Of a stretch of DNA of 64,000 nt, positions 4,620-59,463 are shown piece after piece. Position numbers and translations under genes: made by a program. This stretch comes from an uncultured Campylobacter sp. GTDB taxonomy: Bacteria; Campylobacterota; Campylobacteria; Campylobacterales; Campylobacteraceae. The notes below the pieces were generated by a model. That model saw only the letters and a program-made list of their open reading frames with translations. It did no database searches and was not told where the DNA came from. Location of the stretch: assembly GCA_900539255.1 (NCBI GenBank), contig UQBJ01000003.1, positions 22,058-86,057 on the forward strand, given 5' to 3'. Every line of letters begins with the position of its first letter. The stretch's first letter is position 1.

Positions 4620-4848
4620 TTAAATTAACCTTAAAAGAAGCTTAAAGTTAGCTTAAATTTCAAAAATTTTTCGCCACTTGCGTGGAAAACAAATTTAGAA
4701 ATCAAAATAAAATTCAACGCAAGCGCGGAAATTTAGGCAAAAGAGCGGAAAGTGAAAGCTAAAATTTGAAAATTTAAGCGAAAATCAAAGTGTTTGAGTG
4801 AGAAATTTAAATTTTGAGTAGGAATTTAGCGTTTTAGAAAGTTTTGAA

Positions 4849-4968
4849 AAAAGGTTTGAAAAAAGTGTTAAGAAGTTTTAAAAAGTTTTGCAAAAGGTGT
4901 TAAAAGGTTTCAAAAAGTTTTAAAAAGTTCTAAAAAAGCATTAAAAAAGTTTTCAAAAATGTAAATTC
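4849..4968. repeat. Phased A-tract array (~11-bp period gttttaaaaaa-like units, ~11 copies)
   Basis: Direct reading shows repeated aaaagtttt/aaaaggttt units with a helical-repeat period. This implies intrinsically bent DNA upstream of a consensus promoter. Confidence 0.6.
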
Positions 4969-5039: not shown

Positions 5040-5220
5040 ATAAGGCGCAAAAAGATTAGGAAAGTAAGAAAAATAAAAAGAAAGCAAGAAAAGCAAATAC
5101 GCAAAAAGTTAAAAAATAAGAAAACAAAAAAGCAAATTTAAGTAAAAAGTTAAAAAAAATAAAAAATACAAAAGACAAAATGCAAAAAAGTATAAGAAAG
5201 CAAAAATAAAAAAGGACAAA
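5040..5220 (+). other. Purine-rich (A/G-only) ~180-nt leader preceding SMR operon
   Basis: The sequence is almost devoid of C/T (e.g. aagaaaaataaaaagaaagcaagaaaagcaa...). It lies between the promoter and the SMR start codon. The 5056-5241 ORF on the opposite strand is a poly-F artifact. Confidence 0.5.
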
Positions 5221-5221
5221 A

Positions 5222-5602
5222 ATGACAAAAATTTCTCGCATTCGCTCGTGGATAATGCTGTGTTTGGCTATCGCGCTTGAAATTGCAGGGCTTAGTTTGC
5301 TTCAAGTTTTTGAGGAAAGTCCCGTTTTAAGCAAGGTGATTTTGGTGTGTTTTATGAACGCTTCTTATTTTCTTATGTCCTTAGCGTTGCGCCAAATTTC
5401 AGTGGGTGTGGCGTATGCGGCGTGGGAAATCATCGGCGGCATAGGCGTTTTGTTTGTGAGTTTTATCTTTTTTAACCCTATTTTAAGCACTCAGCAATAC
5501 TTCGGCGTAGCACTTGGTTTCATCGGCATAGTTTGCATTATCTTGGGCGAAAAGCACGACACAAGCGCAAATTCCGCTCTAAATTTAAAGGCAAAGGACT
5601 AA
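5222..5602 (+). CDS. Small multidrug resistance (SMR/DMT) family protein, subunit 1
   Basis: 126 aa with 4 TM segments and an EmrE/Gdx-like motif (AYAAWEIIGGIG). It is the first gene of a tandem pair. Confidence 0.8.
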   Translation: MTKISRIRSWIMLCLAIALEIAGLSLLQVFEESPVLSKVILVCFMNASYFLMSLALRQISVGVAYAAWEIIGGIGVLFVSFIFFNPILSTQQYFGVALGFIGIVCIILGEKHDTSANSALNLKAKD

Positions 5603-18517: not shown

Positions 18518-18597
18518 AGTTTTTCCTTTAAAGTTAAATTTAAAGCACAATTTTAGCAAATTTATAGTAAAATTCATAAAAATTTAAAGGAAAATTT

Positions 18598-20769: not shown

Positions 20770-22038
20770 ATGTTTCAAAGCAAGACTTATGAAATCAGCT
20801 CCACAGACGACATAGAACTTGGCATAAGGCGTTACTCAAAGCTCGAATTTAAGGTGAGTTTTGATGATACAAAGCCGATGAAAGCCTTGTTTGTCTTTAT
20901 CAACGGCATTAGAGATGAGGATTATGCGGGCTATGAGGAACATTTGGCTGAATTTGTGGTGCAAACTTATGGCGTGGCAGTGCTTCGAGTAGATTATCAC
21001 TGCATAGGCTTTCGCCCGCAAACGGGGGCGACTTTTTATATGGACAAAAGAGACAAGGAAATTTTCAAGGCACAATGCAGCGAAATCGCTCAGCATTGCG
21101 ACATAGAGCTGAATTTGCCCGATGACTTGTCAAATGATGAAAATTTAGGGCAAAATGAAAGCTACGCCCTTTTAACCAGCCTTAACGACATTATTTTAGA
21201 GCTTAAAAACGCCCACAAAATTCCACAAGACTACCGCTCGCCGCTATCCATAAGTTTGCAGCCTACCAAAAACGAGTATCAAAACTTTGGACTTATGCAA
21301 GCCCTTGACATAATCAACGCCATTTATTTTGTGCGAAAGCACCACGCTGAATTTAAGCTCGCTAAAACGCCCAAAACCTTGCTCTTTGGCACTTCGCACG
21401 GAGGCTATCTTGGCTTTTTGTGCGCTAAATTTGCTCCGTGGCTCATAGATGCAGTAGTGGAAAATTCAGGCTATGCAAATGCGCCGTTGAGATTTTTGGG
21501 CTTTGGCAAGGAATTTGATTATAAGGCTTGCTTTGAAAGCAGCACGGCAAGTATGTTTGACCATCTTGCCATCTTTGTCTTTACCAAAACCTTTTTCACA
21601 AGCGTTCAAAGCTCGCCAAAGTGCTACACCGAAGCGCACGACAAAATCCGCTCTTTGCCAGAACTCGACCACCTGCAAACGCAAGCTGCTTGCCACAAAG
21701 CCGTTTTCGTGTCTTACCACAGCGCAAGAGACTTTGACATAGCCCGCCCAGAGCCAAAACAAAGGCTTTATCAAATGCTTGCTAAACTTGACTTTGACGC
21801 CACTTTGCACTTGATAAAAGATGAAGGCGAAGTTGATGGCAAATTCATCAAAAATTTAAAGCACGGAATGGATATGTCCTTAAAAACGCTCATCAAAAAA
21901 GAGCTGCCGCCCTTGCTTGCCCGAAAATTCACACATAAAAAGAGTGAGAAACACGAAATCACCTACAAAAGCGAGAATTTAGAGTATAAATTCAAAGAAA
22001 AGGCTGATAGCATCGAGCTTGTCATCAAAAAACTCTAA
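20770..22038 (+). CDS. Alpha/beta-hydrolase-fold protein of a Campylobacter-restricted family (DUF2920 / Cj0617-Cj1305-like, by recollection)
   Basis: 422 aa with a GxSxG nucleophile elbow (LLFGTSHGGYLG). The N-terminus YEISSTDDIELGIRRYSKLEFKV resembles motility-accessory '617 family' proteins. Accessory context immediately after pnp. Confidence 0.45.
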   Translation: MFQSKTYEISSTDDIELGIRRYSKLEFKVSFDDTKPMKALFVFINGIRDEDYAGYEEHLAEFVVQTYGVAVLRVDYHCIGFRPQTGATFYMDKRDKEIFKAQCSEIAQHCDIELNLPDDLSNDENLGQNESYALLTSLNDIILELKNAHKIPQDYRSPLSISLQPTKNEYQNFGLMQALDIINAIYFVRKHHAEFKLAKTPKTLLFGTSHGGYLGFLCAKFAPWLIDAVVENSGYANAPLRFLGFGKEFDYKACFESSTASMFDHLAIFVFTKTFFTSVQSSPKCYTEAHDKIRSLPELDHLQTQAACHKAVFVSYHSARDFDIARPEPKQRLYQMLAKLDFDATLHLIKDEGEVDGKFIKNLKHGMDMSLKTLIKKELPPLLARKFTHKKSEKHEITYKSENLEYKFKEKADSIELVIKKL

Positions 22039-22051
22039 ATTTCAAGCGAAA

Positions 22052-22210
22052 TTTGTGCTTTGCAAATTTTAAATAAAATTTTTGCTTTATAAATTTAAAG
22101 TGAAAATTTTGCTTTACAAATTCAAAGTGGAATTTGTGCTTTGTAAATTTAAAGTGGAATTTATGCTTTATAAATTTTTAGGGAAAATTTGTGTTTGTGT
22201 AAATTTAAAG
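22052..22210. repeat. Degenerate tandem repeat, ~27-bp unit tgctttayaaatttaaagtggaattt x ~6
   Basis: Direct reading. The repeat translates into a spurious ORF at 22082-22273. Confidence 0.8.
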
Positions 22211-22231: not shown

Positions 22232-22325
22232 CTTGTCATACTGAGCTTTCGCAAGAAAGCGAAGTATCCATAATTTTAAAGTGTTTTGAATTCTGTGGAT
22301 TTTTCGCTACGCTCAAAATGACAAA
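22232..22325 (+). repeat. Dispersed imperfect-palindrome element, copy A
   Basis: TTGTCATACTGAGC-[ctttc gcaa gaaag mini-hairpin]-GCGAAGTATCCA ...~25 nt... TGTGGATTTTTCGC-tac-GCTCAAAATGACAA. The two arms are near reverse complements. The same element occurs at ~31142, ~43508 and ~57607. Confidence 0.8.
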
Positions 22326-31020: not shown

Positions 31021-31245
31021 GCTTCGTCATTGCGAGCGAGTTTTGCAAGCGTAATTTAAATGCAAATTCAGTTCTATGGATTGCCACGCTTTGCTTTCGC
31101 AAAGCTCGCAATGACAAAACCCTTGTCATACTAACTTGCGTCTTGTCATACTGAGCGCAGCGAAGTATCCATAAATTCAAAGTATATCTTAAATACTTCT
31201 TTGTGGATTTTTCGCTTTCTAGTGAAAGCTCAAAATGACAAAAAT
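31021..31245 (+). repeat. Dispersed imperfect-palindrome element, locus B (divergent copy 31024-31118, half-site 31121-31141, full copy 31142-31241)
   Basis: Full copy: TTGTCATACTGAGCG-ca-GCGAAGTATCCATAA ... TTGTGGATTTTTCGC-[ctttc tagt gaaag]-GCTCAAAATGACAA. An upstream variant reads GTCATTGCGAGCGAG...GCTCGCAATGACAAAA. It lies between convergent ispH and aroB. Confidence 0.8.
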
Positions 31246-51116: not shown

Positions 51117-51406
51117 AAACGCGAGCAAGCAACTTAAAAGCTGAATTTTGCTTGATTTTAGATGAAAATTTTGGGCGAAATTCGGCTTTTTGCGTGGCAA
51201 AACCTTGCGAAAGTCAAAAAATTTACAGCATTGAAACAAAACTATAAATTTATAGCGTTGAAACAAAGTTATAAATTTTTTAGCTAAAAAGCGTTGATTG
51301 TGAGTGAATTTTATCAATCATCGCAAGCAAAGCTTTTTTGCAAGCTTTGCTTAATCCAGCCTTTGCAAGCATTGTCTTTTCAAGCATTTGCGTTTGCTAA
51401 CGCCCG

Positions 51407-54471: not shown

Positions 54472-56814
54472 TTATTTGTTGTTTTGGTTGTTCGCCGCGT
54501 TTATCATATTTGTTATCGCGGTGCCTTGATTTTTTATGCTGGCGATAATCGCATCATATTGCACCCACTTGCTAAACATAGCTTCATAGTAGGCGTCTAT
54601 GCGGGTTTGCTCTTTGGTTTTTTCATCACCTAACGCTTTGGCGTCTGCTTTAAGTTTATCACTATAAAGCGTCAAAGTGCCTTTTTTCGTATCCACAGTG
54701 CTTACTTTCGTGTAGCTTTGCAGTGTGCTTTTGAGCTGTGAAAACACGCCCGTGCCTGTTTTGGTTTCTGGGTTTATCTTTTGCGCTTCAAGTCCAAATT
54801 TAGCCAAAAAGTCTTTATCGCCTGAAATTTCAAAGTCTGAGCCATCATCGCTTTTAAATTTAAGCGCGTAGCCTTTCTTTTGCTGCCCGCCTTCGGTGAG
54901 CGTGAATTCTTGCATAGAAACTTTTAGCCCATTTATGCCAAAGCTGTTTATGTGGTCAAGCAGCTTTTGCGCACTTTCTGTTGCGTCTTTGCCCTCTAAC
55001 TTAAAGTCGCTTTTGCCATCGGCTGTTTTGGTTAAATCATAACTCACATCGCCAAAGGTAAGCTTAAATTCCTTGCCTTTAAATTCAAGCCCATTTTGGA
55101 ATTCCGCGCCCTCAAAAGTCTGCGCCTTGCCGATGACATTGACTTCCTCAAAGCCACTTGTGCCTGAGAAAAAGCTCTCCGCAAAGTCTGGGTCCTCAGC
55201 AAATTTTTTCTCAAATTTCGCGCTGTCAAATTTCAAAAGCGCAAGCTGGCTTGAATTTGATTTTGAAGTATCATTTAAAGATAGCCCAAAGTCCAGCACC
55301 GACACAAGCACATTTGTTTTGGTTTTGTTGCCCTTGTCATCGGTTGTCGTGCCCTCTATGGATTGCGAAGTAAAAAGCATTTTGTTGATGGTTGAACGCA
55401 AATTTTTGATTTCAATGACATCGGCTAAATCCCCTGAAACCTTTGTTTTGCTGTCATAAGCGGTTACATCGTTAAGGTAATTTACCAGCTCGTTATACTT
55501 CTCAACAAGCTCTTCCATAGTGCTTGTAAGCCCCTCGCTGTCTTGCTTTATGTCGAAATTTATCTCGCCCGCTTTGAGTAAATTCAGCGTCAAACCCGCG
55601 CCTATGTCCTTTATCTCATTTGTCGAGCGATACATTTTTACGCCATCAAGCGTAAATTCAGCATTTTGCGCCTTTTTAAGGTGATATTCGCCTTTTGCAT
55701 CATCAAGCGAGTAGCTTTTTGAAATGCCTATTTGTAGGGTTTGTTCTAAAAAGTCAGTGGTGTCTTTATCGCTTGAATAAGTGCTAGTGCCTTTATCTAG
55801 CGTGCCGTCAAAAATTTTGATTTTTGTCGAGCTGCTTGCCTTGTCGCCCGCGACAAAGTTAAAAGTAAAGTTACCCGAGCCGTCTTTCACGGCTTTGAGT
55901 TCGATTTTACCACTTGTTTTAGTCTTAACTTCATTGATAAGGTCATTGTAAGTTTGTTTGTTTGTTGCAGAAATTTCAAATTTCTCTTCCCCCGCCCAAA
56001 GCGTGAATTTAATGTCCTTGTCTATTGTTGTATTTAAATTATTTACACTGCTCGCCTTTGTGCCGCCGCTAAACGCAAAGCCTTTCATATCAGCTTCAGC
56101 GATATTGTCTTTTTTGAGTGTCCAGCCTAAATTTCCAAGTATCTTTTCGGCATTTGTGTCTTCTTGATAAACGCCCGTTTGAGAGTCTTTCGTGCCAGCA
56201 AAAAAACTTATGGCATTATCAGCTCCCGTTTCCTTGCTCGAAAGGGTAAAGCGATATGGCGTGCCTTTTTCGCCTGTGGAGACGATTTTAGCGATGACTT
56301 TGCCATCAGTGGCTGAATTTATCTTGTCCGCCAAATCCGCATAAGTGGTATTTGCCTCGACTTTTATGGTGTATTCTTTGCCATTTTGCATTATGGTAAA
56401 ACTTGCAGCTTTTTGTTGTCCTGTTAAAACTCTGTCCGTGTCTTTGGTGATACCGCCACTTTGAAAGACATCTTTTTGGGCGATTTTCTCAACCTTTACG
56501 CTTAAATTTTGCACGCTCACGCCGTTGCTTGCTGTGAGTGTCGCCGCTGCGCTGTCGCCTGTTACGCTTGGAGTTACCTTTCTTTTGCCAAAGGCTGTGG
56601 AGTCGCCTAGCGAGCTAACCGCACTTTGAAAGGCAGCAAGCTTTGTGGTAAGCTCTGTGAGCGCCTTTTGCTTTGTGGTGTTTGTCTCTATCTTTGTCTC
56701 ATAAGGCTTTACTCTCGCGCTTATGTCGGCGTTTTTGAGCTTTTCTAGTGTTTCTTGGTTTAAAACCTCTGAGCCAAGTCCTAAACTCGATAATGTTCCC
56801 GTTGCCATTTTCAA
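54472..56814 (-). CDS. fliD: Flagellar filament cap protein FliD (long form, 780 aa)
   Basis: N- and C-terminal FliD coiled-coil regions with an expanded central domain. Lies between flaG and fliS. Confidence 0.88.
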   Translation of the reverse strand: MKMATGTLSSLGLGSEVLNQETLEKLKNADISARVKPYETKIETNTTKQKALTELTTKLAAFQSAVSSLGDSTAFGKRKVTPSVTGDSAAATLTASNGVSVQNLSVKVEKIAQKDVFQSGGITKDTDRVLTGQQKAASFTIMQNGKEYTIKVEANTTYADLADKINSATDGKVIAKIVSTGEKGTPYRFTLSSKETGADNAISFFAGTKDSQTGVYQEDTNAEKILGNLGWTLKKDNIAEADMKGFAFSGGTKASSVNNLNTTIDKDIKFTLWAGEEKFEISATNKQTYNDLINEVKTKTSGKIELKAVKDGSGNFTFNFVAGDKASSSTKIKIFDGTLDKGTSTYSSDKDTTDFLEQTLQIGISKSYSLDDAKGEYHLKKAQNAEFTLDGVKMYRSTNEIKDIGAGLTLNLLKAGEINFDIKQDSEGLTSTMEELVEKYNELVNYLNDVTAYDSKTKVSGDLADVIEIKNLRSTINKMLFTSQSIEGTTTDDKGNKTKTNVLVSVLDFGLSLNDTSKSNSSQLALLKFDSAKFEKKFAEDPDFAESFFSGTSGFEEVNVIGKAQTFEGAEFQNGLEFKGKEFKLTFGDVSYDLTKTADGKSDFKLEGKDATESAQKLLDHINSFGINGLKVSMQEFTLTEGGQQKKGYALKFKSDDGSDFEISGDKDFLAKFGLEAQKINPETKTGTGVFSQLKSTLQSYTKVSTVDTKKGTLTLYSDKLKADAKALGDEKTKEQTRIDAYYEAMFSKWVQYDAIIASIKNQGTAITNMINAANNQNNK

Positions 56815-57200
56815 CTCTCCTTATCAAATAATAACCCTACGGCGTTGCGAAAATACCCCGCTAACGCCCTAGCTTCTTCACTTGGAAACTCCCTGATGAG
56901 TTTGCCTGTGTTTTTTTCAAGCACGCGCAAATACAGCCTGTCTATCTCATCGCTGAAATCAAAGGCTATGTTGGTGTTGAGTAAGTCCATTTGCTTGTTA
57001 AGCTCGCTCGCAAGCTCTTTGAGCTGCTGCGTGCCTTGCTCTTGCTGCTCCTCGCTGAGCTTTTGGGCATTTTGCACTAGGCTTTCACCCACGCCTTTGG
57101 ACTTTTGCGCCCTTTTATCTGCTGATAAAGCAGTAGCATCCGTTTTGCCTGAATTTGCCCTGACACTCGACACTATGGTCGTTTCAATCGCATCTAACAT
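56811..57200 (-). CDS. flaG: FlaG family flagellar protein
   Basis: 129 aa with a FlaG C-terminal motif (NIAFDFSDEIDRLYLRVLEKNTGKLIREFP). Confidence 0.85.
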   Translation of the reverse strand: MLDAIETTIVSSVRANSGKTDATALSADKRAQKSKGVGESLVQNAQKLSEEQQEQGTQQLKELASELNKQMDLLNTNIAFDFSDEIDRLYLRVLEKNTGKLIREFPSEEARALAGYFRNAVGLLFDKES

Positions 57201-57239
57201 CTATTTTCTCCCTTCCTGTGAGAACTCAAATCCAAACGA

Positions 57240-57275
57240 TAAATCGACAACAAGCATAAAAATTTTATACCCTTG
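57240..57275 (-). promoter_or_regulatory. Possible sigma28 promoter for flaG-fliD-fliS
   Basis: The minus strand reads TAAA-N17-CGATTT (...ggtaTAAAatttttatgcttgttgtCGATTTatcg), upstream of the flaG ATG. The match to TAAA-N15/16-CGATwT is approximate. Confidence 0.3.
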
Positions 57276-57317
57276 TATAAATTTTTTACTCACTTTTTTG
57301 TTTTGCTTTAAATTTTT

Positions 57318-57560
57318 AGCCACATTTTAAATTTTCTAAATTCTACTTTTAAATTTTAAACTCTTTTTCTAAATTTTTAAACTTTTTTGAATTCTTTTTC
57401 TAAATTTCTAATTTTTTTGAACTCTTTTTCTAAATTTTAAACTCCATTTGTAAATTGTTGAACTCTTTTTTCTAACTTTCTAAACTCTATTTTTAATTTT
57501 CTAAATTTTTATTTAAATTTCTAAACTTTTTTGATTTTTTTAAATTTTAAACTCTAATTA
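57318..57560. repeat. Degenerate tandem repeat (~21-22-bp unit aactctttttctaaattttta x ~10)
   Basis: Direct reading of the flaG/Sel1-gene intergenic region. Confidence 0.75.
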
Positions 57561-57566
57561 ACTTAT

Positions 57567-57775
57567 CTTGTCATACTTCGCTATTTTTGTCATACTTTGT
57601 TATTTCTTGTCATACTGAGCGTGAGCGAAGTATCCACAAATTTAAAGCGTGCCTTAAAATTCTTTGGATTTTTCGCTACGCTCAAAATGACAACGATTTG
57701 TTTGCCATACCGATAGTGTGATAAGTATCCATTTTGCTTTGCCATACTGAGCGTGTGCTAAGTATCCGCGAAGTT
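57567..57775 (+). repeat. Dispersed imperfect-palindrome element, locus D (three TTGTCATACT half-starts, full copy 57607-57692, two further left-arm-like units)
   Basis: Full copy: TTGTCATACTGAGCG-tga-GCGAAGTATCCACAAA...TTTGGATTTTTCGC-tac-GCTCAAAATGACAA. Flanking units: TTGCCATAC...AAGTATCCA and TGCCATACTGAGCG-tgt-GCtAAGTATCC. Confidence 0.8.
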
Positions 57776-57894
57776 GCTTTGTCTGAAAGCAAATGCTTTG
57801 AAAGCAAGCACAAGATAAGTCCGTGAATTTTATCAAATTTGTGCTACAATTTCGCAAATTTTAAATTTTCAAAGCAAAATTAAGGAGCAAACAA

Positions 57895-59463
57895 ATGAAA
57901 AAGTCGCCATCATTAAACGCAAAAGCCCTTATCATAGTGGCTTGTGTCGTTGTGGTTGTAGTGGGCGTGATTATCGCGCAAACACTTGGGCTTAGATTTG
58001 AGGTGAAATTTGACAATTACACCACGCAAAAGCAAGAGTTGCAAGCAAAGTGTTCGGTAGAAGCTGAGGAAGTCGATGAAATAGCCTGCCTTAAACTTGG
58101 CAAGATTTTTGAAAAAGAAAAGGACACGGACAACGCCATAAAGTATTATGCGGGTGCTTGCTCGGCAAATGCTTACACGCATTTAAATGAGCCTGAGTTA
58201 AAATACGCCTGCTCGGCACTTGGGGCTTTGTTTGAAGCGCAAAAAGAGTATAGCACGGCTCTTACTTACTACGCCCTTGCGTGTGAGTTTCAAGAACCAA
58301 AGGCTTGTGCCAAAATAAGCGAACTTGCGCCAAAAGAGCCTGAATTTAACGCTGCAAATGCTTTGTTTAAAGCGTGCAGGGAAAATTTTCGCAAAAAAGA
58401 GTATTATCCTGCCTGCCTTGAACTGCAAAAGATTTATGTAAAAAACGATAGAGACATACCGAGCGCTATCAAAGAGATGGCTGGAATGTGCAGGGATATA
58501 TTTTTGCCCGCTTGTGCTGAACGCAACAAGGCTGTGGATAAATATGTGGCTGATAGAATCAAAAATATCCGCGTTGAAATTGATAAAAGGGAGTATATCA
58601 TCTCAAATTTTGATAAGTATTGCGCAAATTTCAAAGTAAAAAGCGCGTGCGAGGCAAAGGAAAGTTTTCTTGCTCAATTTGATAAAGAATGCCAAACAGA
58701 CGAGGCAAACGGCGAAAGCTGCGTTTTGCTGGCTCGTTTTTATATGTCAAATAAAACAAAAAACCTATACAACGATAAAATATATTTAGAGCCTTTTAAA
58801 AAGACGGCGCAAAAGGGTTGTGATTTGGGCAATTCTAATGCTTGCTATCTTTTGGCGAAGTATTACTACAAGTATTTGGATTTGATAAATATAAGAGAAA
58901 ACAAAACAGACGAGCTAGCCATAAGCGAAGCAAGAAAATTTGGCAAAAGAGTGTGCGCGGAGTTAAAAGATGCGGGCAAATGCGTGCGGCTTGCTGAGTT
59001 TGAAACGGATATTAAAGAAAATGATGATGAGCGGGTGAAAAATATGCTTTTCTATCTTAAAACGGGTTGTGATGAGCTGGGCGATGTTAAGGTGTGTCAA
59101 ACCCTTGCAGAGCATTATGATGAAGGAGTTGTTAATAGACGAAAGCCATATCATCTTGATGAAAAATTTATCAACCAAAAACAAGCCTTGCATTACTATG
59201 ATAAGGCGTGTGCTTTGGGCGTGGGTTGTATGCGTTTAGCGCAAATTTATCTTTGGGGAGAATATGTGAGCGATAAAGAAGTAAGGCGAAATTTAGCCAA
59301 AGCAAAGCACTACTTTACTAAGGATTGCGATAGCGGTGTTGATGATTATGAATGTGGCATTGATGGCGATGATAATGTTTGCTCGGCAAGCAACCCAAGC
59401 TGCCTTATAAAGAGATTAAGCCCAAAAGAGCTTAAAAATTTAGATGAGAGCATTTTTAACTGA
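57895..59463 (+). CDS. Sel1-like repeat (SLR) cysteine-rich protein, Helicobacter Hcp-like, with N-terminal TM/signal
   Basis: 522 aa. The SLR consensus with paired Cys (AC..LG..F......A..YY..AC) recurs. The N-terminal hydrophobic segment is ALIIVACVVVVVVGVIIA. RBS AAGGAG. Confidence 0.7.
   Translation: MKKSPSLNAKALIIVACVVVVVVGVIIAQTLGLRFEVKFDNYTTQKQELQAKCSVEAEEVDEIACLKLGKIFEKEKDTDNAIKYYAGACSANAYTHLNEPELKYACSALGALFEAQKEYSTALTYYALACEFQEPKACAKISELAPKEPEFNAANALFKACRENFRKKEYYPACLELQKIYVKNDRDIPSAIKEMAGMCRDIFLPACAERNKAVDKYVADRIKNIRVEIDKREYIISNFDKYCANFKVKSACEAKESFLAQFDKECQTDEANGESCVLLARFYMSNKTKNLYNDKIYLEPFKKTAQKGCDLGNSNACYLLAKYYYKYLDLINIRENKTDELAISEARKFGKRVCAELKDAGKCVRLAEFETDIKENDDERVKNMLFYLKTGCDELGDVKVCQTLAEHYDEGVVNRRKPYHLDEKFINQKQALHYYDKACALGVGCMRLAQIYLWGEYVSDKEVRRNLAKAKHYFTKDCDSGVDDYECGIDGDDNVCSASNPSCLIKRLSPKELKNLDESIFN

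Follow-up and report, generated by a model that had tools for sequence, protein, structure and literature searches.

A polymorphic cluster of tagged hairpin repeats, probably of the CGTC-type REP class, in the flaG intergenic region of an uncultured Campylobacter

Introduction

When short units of one orientation are repeated between two divergent genes, do they form an operator array, or are they repeats of another kind that have come to lie there? The question is posed by locus D, a cluster at positions 57568-57768 of a 64,000-nucleotide stretch of contig UQBJ01000003.1 (assembly GCA_900539255.1) from an uncultured Campylobacter sp.; this whole stretch is called the window below, and all coordinates refer to it unless another contig is named. 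Locus D lies between the flagellar gene flaG and a gene encoding a protein of 522 amino acids (aa). A preliminary description saw in it an array of half-sites around one complete hairpin element, to be explained by protein binding or by repeated abortive insertion.

Comparison with related loci indicates, with high confidence, that locus D is a polymorphic cluster of Ssn-type hairpins, i.e. of repetitive extragenic palindromes (REPs) that carry a CGTC or TGTC tag. Its arms represent a tandem-G.A variant of the class formed by CGTC-tagged REPs and Ssn-related motifs (SRMs), a new lineage rather than a textbook member, and arms identical to those of the window are tied to a GIY-YIG nuclease gene in close relatives.

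Results

Locus D contains one intact doublet, two decayed arms and two stubs

The divergent intergenic region between flaG and the 522-aa gene (57201-57894) measures 694 bp, in agreement with the ~690 bp described earlier. The cluster within it comprises one intact inverted doublet, two decayed copies of the left arm and two stubs of ~20 nt:

57568-57586, plus strand: 5′ stub 1, the TGTC tag and the first five stem bases (TTGTCATACT) followed by TCGCTATTT; it has no 3′ half and cannot fold
57587-57606, plus strand: 5′ stub 2 (TTGTCATACTTTGTTATTTC), which repeats stub 1 in tandem at a period of 19-20 nt
57607-57693: inverted doublet of 87 bp, left arm TTGTCATACTGAGCGTGAGCGAAGTATCCA, right arm TGGATTTTTCGCTACGCTCAAAATGACAA
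57607-57636, plus strand: intact ACT-type arm with TGTC tag, stem ATACT/AGTAT, tandem G.A (GAGC/GCGA), loop and CCA tail
57637-57664: spacer of the head-to-head doublet, 28 nt, AT-rich and partly self-complementary
57665-57693, minus strand: intact TTT-type arm, the heterodimer partner of the ACT arm (TTGTCATTTTGAGCGTAGCGAAAAATCCA on the minus strand)
57702-57731, plus strand: strongly decayed ACT-type arm (TTGCCATACCGATAGTGTGATAAGTATCCA), a head-to-tail tandem copy
57739-57768, plus strand: decayed ACT-type arm (TTGCCATACTGAGCGTGTGCTAAGTATCC), 84% identical to the intact arm

Read outward from flaG, the region consists of ~115 promoter-proximal nucleotides, an AT-rich array, the two stubs, the doublet and the two extra left-arm copies. 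TTGTCATACT begins at 57568, 57587 and 57607, so that of the three consecutive starts reported earlier the first is exact and the other two (57588 and 57608) were off by one. Tandem Repeats Finder reports a period of 19 at 57566-57616, a period of 37 at 57697-57767 and, for the tandem array previously put at 21-22 bp, an AT-rich array of period 20-21 at 57328-57532; a repeat-family search returned three copies of a 37-nt family (D2) and three copies of an 18-nt family with a spacing of 19-20 (D3). The 15-mer TTGTCATACTGAGCG, with up to three mismatches, has 10 matches in the window against 1.03 expected, a number that none of 100 shuffles reached, and the repeat pattern is therefore not due to chance.

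The repetition of oriented left-arm-type units around one complete element is borne out by the sequence, the repeat searches and the shuffles, and the two further units said to follow the full element are found at 57702-57731 and 57739-57768. All five left-arm-type units are present but they are not equivalent: one is intact, one is decayed, one is barely recognisable and two are unfoldable stubs. The unit at 57702-57731 is 65% identical to the intact arm, has no fold and is known only through its likeness to its neighbour; that at 57739-57768 keeps the fold (−5.4 kcal/mol). As these two decayed arms have TTGCC and a GTGTG loop in common, they arose when 37 nt were locally duplicated in tandem.

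Each arm is a self-contained hairpin

The left arm has the structure TTGTC-AT-ACT-GA-GC-[loop]-GC-GA-AGT-AT-CCA and the right arm, as its reverse complement, TTGTC-AT-TTT-GA-GC-[loop]-GC-GA-AAA-AT-CCA. The three variable stem positions pair inside each arm (ACT with AGT, TTT with AAA) and never between the arms. From its 5′ to its 3′ end, the unit is composed of a Y-GTC tag, an A-T/T-A opening, three covarying pairs, a tandem sheared G.A/A.G, at least two more pairs, a free loop or an extension of the stem, and a C(CA) tail. Its stem has nine positions, seven of which are canonical pairs and two (positions 6-7, the conserved G.A/A.G) non-canonical.

Covariation was examined in arms that were defined without a constraint on the triplet and from which those matching the search pattern had been removed. 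In 99 of the 111 arms left, the variable triplets are fully complementary, with about 10 pair types, against a mean of 34 and a maximum of 46 for shuffled partners. A gapless alignment of 48 sequences, the selection of which demanded two inner pairs and in which the search pattern fixed the triplet in 19 rows, has 99.1% of its cells paired and double changes in five of seven pairs, and slid registers give 19-52%. The A-T and T-A opening pairs are invariant in all 48 arms, and a few G-T(U) pairs occur. Because its own two halves covary, each arm is a complete hairpin unit and not half of a palindromic operator. As single-stranded DNA (ssDNA), the doublet at 57607-57693 reaches −23.2 and −24.6 kcal/mol on its two strands (z −6.7 and −6.2), and the partial self-complementarity of the spacer makes the whole doublet able to fold as a single long hairpin.

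The same arms occur at three other sites in the window

A covariance model, R1, was built from the 48-sequence alignment, which contains non-window loci alone, mostly from other phyla. Applied to the window, R1 recovers eight arms, precisely those of the four doublets (E 3e-10 to 6e-6), among them the ACT arm (35.8 bits, E 3e-7) and the TTT arm (43.8 bits, E 2e-9) of locus D, both of which are also in a regular-expression census. Below the eight it places the decayed arm of locus D (match 57738-57769, 16.5 bits, E 0.045) and then a TGC arm (E 0.6); the unit at 57702 and the stubs are not detected by R1 in the window. Outside locus D, the family is represented by the following features:

22233-22324, plus strand: ACT/TTT head-to-head doublet between two plus-strand genes, adjoining a 27-nt AT-rich tandem array
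31024-31117, plus strand: decayed TGC-type doublet in a convergent-gene intergenic region
31124-31142, plus strand: stub between the decayed TGC doublet and the intact doublet
31143-31241, plus strand: intact ACT/TTT doublet between convergent genes
43510-43590, plus strand: ACT/TTT doublet between two minus-strand genes
43595-43640: decayed single TTT-type arm after the doublet 43510-43590

All four intact doublets of the 64 kb are head-to-head, intergenic and ~87-99 bp long; of the three sites away from flaG, one is convergent and two are unidirectional. The tag is TGTC in all eight intact arms, preceded by T in seven and by C in one. Six arms end in a CCA tail, the two of 43510-43590 in CTC, and the loops past the GC pair range from 1-4 nt to extensions of ~14-20 nt that form a stem of their own. 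A Campylobacter metagenome-assembled genome (MAG; L035, one of the related loci and contigs designated here by L numbers) that is 78% identical has a doublet at the site orthologous to the 43510-43640 intergenic region.

These units covary as hairpins and recur at three other sites of the window and in many phyla (see below), and the half-site array of a promoter region that they were first taken for does not survive. In a loose sense that reading was sound, as the units are repeated, oriented and above chance and are plausibly recognised by a protein, but they are not operator half-sites. It had been made to depend on half-sites occurring outside full palindromes or overlapping mapped promoters; single arms and stubs do the former at 31124 and 43595-43640, yet always beside a doublet.

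The ACT arm is on the plus strand in all four intact doublets (22233, 31143, 43510, 57607), which have flanking genes on either strand, a bias that is not significant (p ~0.125); an orientation bias on the replication strand would fit a single-strand mechanism. AT-rich tandem arrays with periods of ~10/21, 27 and 40 occupy several intergenic regions, at 57328-57532, 4831-4958, 5071-5231, 18536-18597, 22036-22210 and 51219-51391, and those at 22036-22210 and 57328-57532 abut the ACT-arm side of a REP doublet. A period of 21 nt equals two helical turns, so that phased A/T tracts may bend the DNA.

Strains differ in the presence and content of the cluster

Strains were compared through contigs encoding FlaG proteins 92-95% identical to that of the window. 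Upstream of flaG, these have four kinds of neighbour (a Sel1-like gene, speA-hexapeptide transferase, rpoN-ygjP, and other genes without assignment), and the intergenic length varies from 233 to 1454 bp. Arms are absent upstream of flaG in L119/L120 and L128-L130; in L122 and L125-L127 there are one to three intact doublets with differing loops, together with stubs and the AT-rich array. L122 and L119 have the same neighbours and differ by a block of ~420 bp that consists of the REP cluster and the AT array. A role specific to this promoter is at odds with such variation. The ~100 nt directly preceding the flaG ATG do not vary among the six aligned strains and include TAAA-N17-CGAT (57243-57267, minus strand), which we take to be a sigma28-type promoter-like sequence. 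Since the cluster is missing from some strains and the proximal ~100 nt are invariant, the cluster is accessory to flaG expression, and the alignments indicate that it is accessory DNA, neither promoter nor operator of flaG. In the other direction, the stubs (57568-57616) contain two sigma70-like sites pointing toward the 522-aa gene (TTGTCA, 17-18 nt, CATACT, with TG before the second hexamer). The neighbouring genes of the window are:

56811-57200, minus strand: flaG (Pfam FlaG, E 6e-21)
57895-59463, plus strand: 522-aa gene, weakly TPR/Sel1-like and under the Pfam cut-offs, so that its earlier naming as a Sel1 gene stands as a resemblance

The flaG upstream region is a synteny breakpoint (57201-57894 against L119, L122, L125, L126, L128 and L130), and from strain to strain the AT-rich array comes and goes with the REP cluster. 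Related contigs also cease to be homologous to the window at the REP loci 31024-31241 and 43510-43640: L148 matches the window over 29.1-31.0 kb and then diverges, and L035 has the part corresponding to 43.7-49.9 kb in inverted orientation with respect to 39.9-40.9 kb and a doublet where the two meet. Such clusters may be markers of rearrangement endpoints. Short-read contigs of this species from Logan and ENA (L002, L003, L123, L124, L127) end inside or beside the REP doublet upstream of flaG, the repeats being numerous enough to break assemblies.

The hairpin is widespread among bacteria

A scan of one genome per species with the exact pattern GTCATACTGAGC-N(2-25)-GCGAAGTATC, which has 22 specified bases, found it in at least 114 loci from many phyla, with Helicobacteraceae, Campylobacter, Bacteroidales, Cyanobacteria, Gastranaerophilales, Latescibacterota, Mucispirillum, Clostridia and others as hosts among the matches listed. 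The partner arms at these loci have the triplets TCT, TGC, TTT, GCT, CCT and more; GTCAT, GA/GA and the following ATC are fixed. Of 340 arms taken from other loci, 209 have a T and 102 a C immediately ahead of GTC, and 300 start their tail with C. A second scan, of metagenome contigs with the TTT arm, yielded 118 loci (0.9 Mb, median GC 42%). The arms in these related contigs form 155 head-to-head, 65 tail-to-tail and 52 head-to-tail pairs, and the median head-to-head spacer is 37 nt.

Two loci binned as Candidatus Methanomethylophilaceae archaeon from a gut sample (L033, L046) have an ACT arm with the identical 22 specified bases, reflecting either cross-domain transfer or a binning error. 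The doublet is at the centre of a longer inverted repeat in Tolypothrix, Brasilonema and Scytonema (L024, L036, L044) and in Gastranaerophilales and relatives (L014, L016, L025, L084, L100), an example being AGGACTTACGCA...TGCGTAAGTCCT; a doublet so placed is nested in, or is the core of, a larger MITE-like element (MITE, miniature inverted-repeat transposable element).

Identical arms surround a small GIY-YIG nuclease gene in close relatives

At the loci of the first scan, an Ssn-like protein profile detected GIY-YIG genes at four among the matches listed, none of them in Campylobacterota. G.A-type arms lie 14-260 nt from these four genes, on both sides in L006, L101 and L105; the gene in L069 is a pseudogene with an arm near one side only. 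The 118-locus set has a 95-aa GIY-YIG gene in four loci (hidden Markov model E ~1e-35; Pfam PF01541, E 1.8e-17). On Campylobacter-like metagenome contigs, the 95-aa genes are embedded in dense ACT/TTT/ATT arrays whose arms are identical to those of the window, and such arms are found on both sides of the gene in L166, L199, L223, L156, L249 and L250. The GIY-YIG assignment of the Campylobacter 95-aa protein (MNKSYCIYIITNKRNGTLYIGVTNDL...) is by Pfam PF01541.

On longer scaffolds, near-identical proteins (97-99%) occur in three contexts: flgE-ssn-hydrogenase, groESL-ssn-rpsA, and beside a ZorA-like gene. With the ssn-like gene in three unrelated contexts (L249 6001-6468; L250 6001-6288; L253 226-534), it appears to move or to sit at rearrangement-prone repeat clusters. 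Gene calls of this kind are in places stretched to 102-155 aa by read-through of upstream arms. Compared with GIY-YIG proteins of distant phyla, one of them from a Neisseriaceae MAG, the Campylobacter protein shows 60-69% identity, a level of conservation that fits the near-identity of the hairpin across phyla. Searched against PDB sequences, it had zero matches.

Contig L148 is 91-95% identical to the window at 29.1-31.0 kb and 94% identical to the ssn-bearing contig L250, so the ssn-bearing population is the lineage of the window or a very close relative. Exact-protein look-ups for ssn matched other samples, not the window's own sample; this strain may encode the nuclease. All-against-all clustering of the open reading frames (ORFs) near the motif in the at least 114 loci revealed no recurrent neighbour besides the GIY-YIG pair among the matches listed, and no transposase-like ORF recurs near the repeats across the at least 114 and 118 loci (232 examined).

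The 5′ stubs are specific to ACT arms

A stub consists of the tag, the first 5-7 stem bases and a linker of ~10 nt. In the 0.9-Mb set, an orphan GTCAT lies within 45 nt 5′ of the tag in 96 of 221 ACT arms (43%; 15 of them with two) compared to 23 of 217 TTT arms (11%; Fisher p 3e-15), at distances that peak at 18-23 and 38-40 nt. Stub 1 has homologues at this locus in other strains, and also in L250, where five consecutive ~20-nt units, with linkers homologous to those of the window, lead up to an ACT arm upstream of ssn. The genomes of other Campylobacter and Helicobacter (L019, L035, L097, L106) likewise have stubs ahead of ACT arms. The ~20-nt stub is a new, family-wide and ACT-specific feature that no description in the CGTC-REP and SRM papers cited below covers.

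How stubs arise is a matter for conjecture. The proposal of repeated abortive insertion pointed in the right direction, in that the DNA belongs to a repeat family rather than to this locus, but a nested-insertion origin of the stubs was rejected: the expected orphan 3′ halves are missing downstream of the doublets. A speculative and, in our estimate, rather unlikely explanation is that Ssn has nicked repeatedly 5′ of the tag and that stubs are the scar of the repair that came after, by template switching or slippage, in which case they would record the arm type cut by the Campylobacter nuclease. If true, they would provide the first sequence-level handle on the duplication of CGTC-type REPs and the seeding of rearrangements, a question since 2013. 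A still weaker addition to this idea would let the stub array act as a TTGTCA-17-CATACT promoter as well, for it lies upstream of ssn in L250 and is directed at the 522-aa gene here.

Discussion

A model for the tagged hairpins and its weak points

We consider it quite likely, taking all parts together, that locus D contains grouped CGTC/TGTC REPs of the same class as the Neisseria NTS/dRS3 and Ssn-related motifs and that the Ssn mechanism applies to them. The Neisseria member NTS, within which dRS3 lies, and the related SRM hairpins are located on the flanks of small single-domain GIY-YIG (cd10448) genes, called ssn; the nucleases cut such repeats in Neisseria and Wolbachia, and SsnA attaches to the hairpin and makes its cut a few bases 5′ of it, exclusively in ssDNA (Nat Commun 2025;16:2388). 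The C after the palindrome is the most critical base for binding, and the three bases preceding the palindrome are the most critical for cleavage (Nat Commun 2025;16:2388). The GTC and the tail C that are conserved in our arms correspond to these positions and connect them to the contacts of an ssDNA nuclease. On this analogy, we lean towards the arms being ssDNA substrates of a GIY-YIG nuclease in this organism.

The proposed sequence of events is as follows. The arms of this Campylobacter lineage are arranged mostly as head-to-head heterodimers, with an ACT arm, a spacer of ~37 nt and a TTT arm, in a doublet that resembles a REPIN (a REP doublet forming a hairpin). Whenever the DNA becomes single-stranded, during replication or during uptake in natural transformation, each arm would fold and be recognised by a small Ssn-type GIY-YIG nuclease encoded elsewhere in the genome. 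The nuclease would cut G.A-type arms as SsnA cuts its own substrate, with a nick a few bases 5′ of the tag. Clusters would thereby become sites of breakage, repair, local duplication and rearrangement, and transformation or rearrangement may be affected.

Several points weigh against this model. GIY-YIG nucleases are not transposases, and the multiplication of the repeats is not accounted for. The Ssn-like profile search detected no GIY-YIG gene within the 64-kb window. Single arms fold weakly with DNA nearest-neighbour parameters (−3 to −5 kcal/mol, z −1 to −2), which may underrate tandem G.A pairs. The published SRM string, HGTCWYN(0-2)YYVSBRHN(0-5)WNVSBRGN(0-2)RNCYNB, has zero matches in the window, where NTS and NTSvar do match; the string fails on the arms of the window because the A of the tandem G.A occupies its S position. 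Finally, the TTGTCA-17-CATACT sites of the stubs could still exert a transcriptional side effect on the 522-aa gene.

Alternative explanations

An array of transcription-factor half-sites, in which a regulator of flaG or of the 522-aa gene would bind double-stranded units TTGYCATACT...AAGTATCC, would explain why the units share one orientation inside a divergent intergenic region and why the stubs yield a sigma70-like TTGTCA-17-CATACT. The same units, however, stand at convergent and unidirectional sites and in many phyla, two of the five are mutationally decayed, and the halves of a unit covary as a hairpin, which is not required of a duplex operator. The absence of the cluster from strains with the same flaG promoter, a presence/absence polymorphism, largely refutes this explanation, and we regard it as very improbable. 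Little more can be said for a classical MITE, a deletion derivative of an insertion sequence (IS) with terminal inverted repeats (TIRs) for a DDE transposase, whose single arms would be abortive or broken insertions. The doublet does have suitable dimensions (~87-99 bp, with inverted ends of ~30 nt) and multiple intergenic copies, but none of the four doublets is flanked by a target-site duplication or direct repeat, and what would be a TIR is in each case a conserved hairpin that covaries internally. Between ACT and TTT arms there are systematic differences at positions that pair within the arm, and tail-to-tail and head-to-tail arrangements and single arms are common. As the only recurrent associated gene encodes a 95-aa GIY-YIG nuclease and no transposase, and none of the loci retrieved contained an IS with such ends, a MITE is highly improbable.

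The architecture of the doublets, inverted hairpins with a spacer accompanied by decay singletons and clusters, is also that of GTAG-type REPINs mobilised by a REP-associated tyrosine transposase (RAYT), an IS200/IS605-like Y1 HUH enzyme (PMC3337134 and PMC3116915; PMC3733652). We consider such an origin very unlikely here: the tag is TGTC or CGTC instead of GTAG, CGTC repeats flank no tyrosine transposase (PMC3733652), and no transposase-like ORF recurs near the loci of either scan, where a GIY-YIG gene is embedded in the arms instead. An action at the RNA level, with transcribed hairpins serving as terminators, mRNA stabilisers or a small RNA, has somewhat more in its favour, although it too is improbable. 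REPs elsewhere are mostly downstream of genes and can stabilise mRNA (PMC3733652), three of the four doublets of the window lie between convergent or unidirectional genes, and a few G-T(U) pairs are found in the stems. Locus D, however, lies between divergent genes, where a read-through transcript is not expected. The arms have no terminator-like T-run, and Rfam gave nothing credible, either for the whole window at gathering thresholds or for the region at E up to 10; a tRNA/tmRNA search found none. The conserved unpaired GTC and tail C match ssDNA-nuclease contacts, and N. meningitidis SsnA, the only Ssn enzyme tried on RNA, had no activity there (Nat Commun 2025;16:2388). An RNA effect could be a secondary role at other loci. 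A hammerhead-like reading of GUC...CUGA...GAA was rejected, because the sequence lacks both the U-G-A of the CUGAUGA core and a three-way junction.

Implications

With tagged hairpin repeats as the preferred explanation, an apparent operator array of ~200 bp in the promoter region of a flagellar gene should be annotated as REP/SRM repeats instead of regulatory sites. This annotation also accounts for at least four other intergenic oddities in the window and for the breaks of short-read assemblies of this species at such sites. It would bring Campylobacter and Helicobacter into the Ssn/SRM system; both, like Neisseria, are mucosal bacteria with natural competence. Since the published SRM string misses a widespread tandem-G.A variant, current surveys undercount the system. 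The arm-specific stub signature might reveal the mechanism of cleavage or propagation.

Comparison with known repeat systems

A close match in anatomy is the family of CGTC-tagged REPs, which have an unpaired CGTC, often TGTC, opening A-T pairs and a CCA tail (Di Nocera, De Gregorio & Rocco 2013, BMC Genomics 14:522, PMC3733652). The defining rules of that family allow a CCTC tag and specify a stem of 8-9 bp and a loop of 4-5 nt, with exceptions in some hosts, and the pipeline dropped repeats with more than one stem mismatch; its members form mostly head-to-head dimers (tags outside) with spacers of 20-100 bp, heterodimers being frequent among them; now and then singletons and dimers are clustered, and the repeats were not found to flank a tyrosine transposase (PMC3733652). 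Our arms agree in the tag (TGTC here), the A-T opening, the CCA tail, the dominance of head-to-head pairs, the heterodimers and clusters and the lack of an associated transposase. They differ in the conserved tandem G.A/A.G of their nine-position stem and in their loops, which are often extended to a second stem of up to ~20 nt instead of 4-5 nt and thus lie outside the published range. Campylobacter and Helicobacter are also outside the host set of 2013, and tail-to-tail and head-to-tail pairs are not rare here (65 and 52 versus 155 head-to-head).

The NTS, NTSvar and SRM hairpins share with our arms a C/T-GTC-AT tag, the C after the palindrome and, in NTSvar (CGTCATACTCGGG-N5-CCCGAGTATC; Nat Commun 2025;16:2388), the ATACT...AGTATC stem. 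As with SsnA, repeats lie on both sides of a single-domain GIY-YIG gene of ~95 aa, here in relatives and not in the window. The arms differ from NTS and SRMs in falling outside the published search string, and the window in having no nuclease gene.

Correia elements of Neisseria and other MITEs are, like the doublets, short intergenic inverted repeats of naturally competent mucosal bacteria that can create promoters; they have true TIRs, a TA target duplication and sites for integration host factor, whereas the elements described here are without all three and have arms that are autonomous hairpins. A further parallel in organisation is that with REPINs, bacterial interspersed mosaic elements and their RAYTs, work on which is reportedly due to Bertels and Rainey (2011), Nunvar (2010) and Ton-Hoang (2012). 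Both systems have inverted hairpin doublets as the apparent multiplying unit and singletons as its decay products, and both combine clustering with single-stranded recognition, which would apply to our arms as well, and with a single-copy enzyme gene flanked by repeats. They part in the tag, which is GTAG in REPINs, and in the chemistry of the enzyme: an HUH Y1 transposase acting through a covalent intermediate there, and here, as proposed, a hydrolytic nuclease of the GIY-YIG family.

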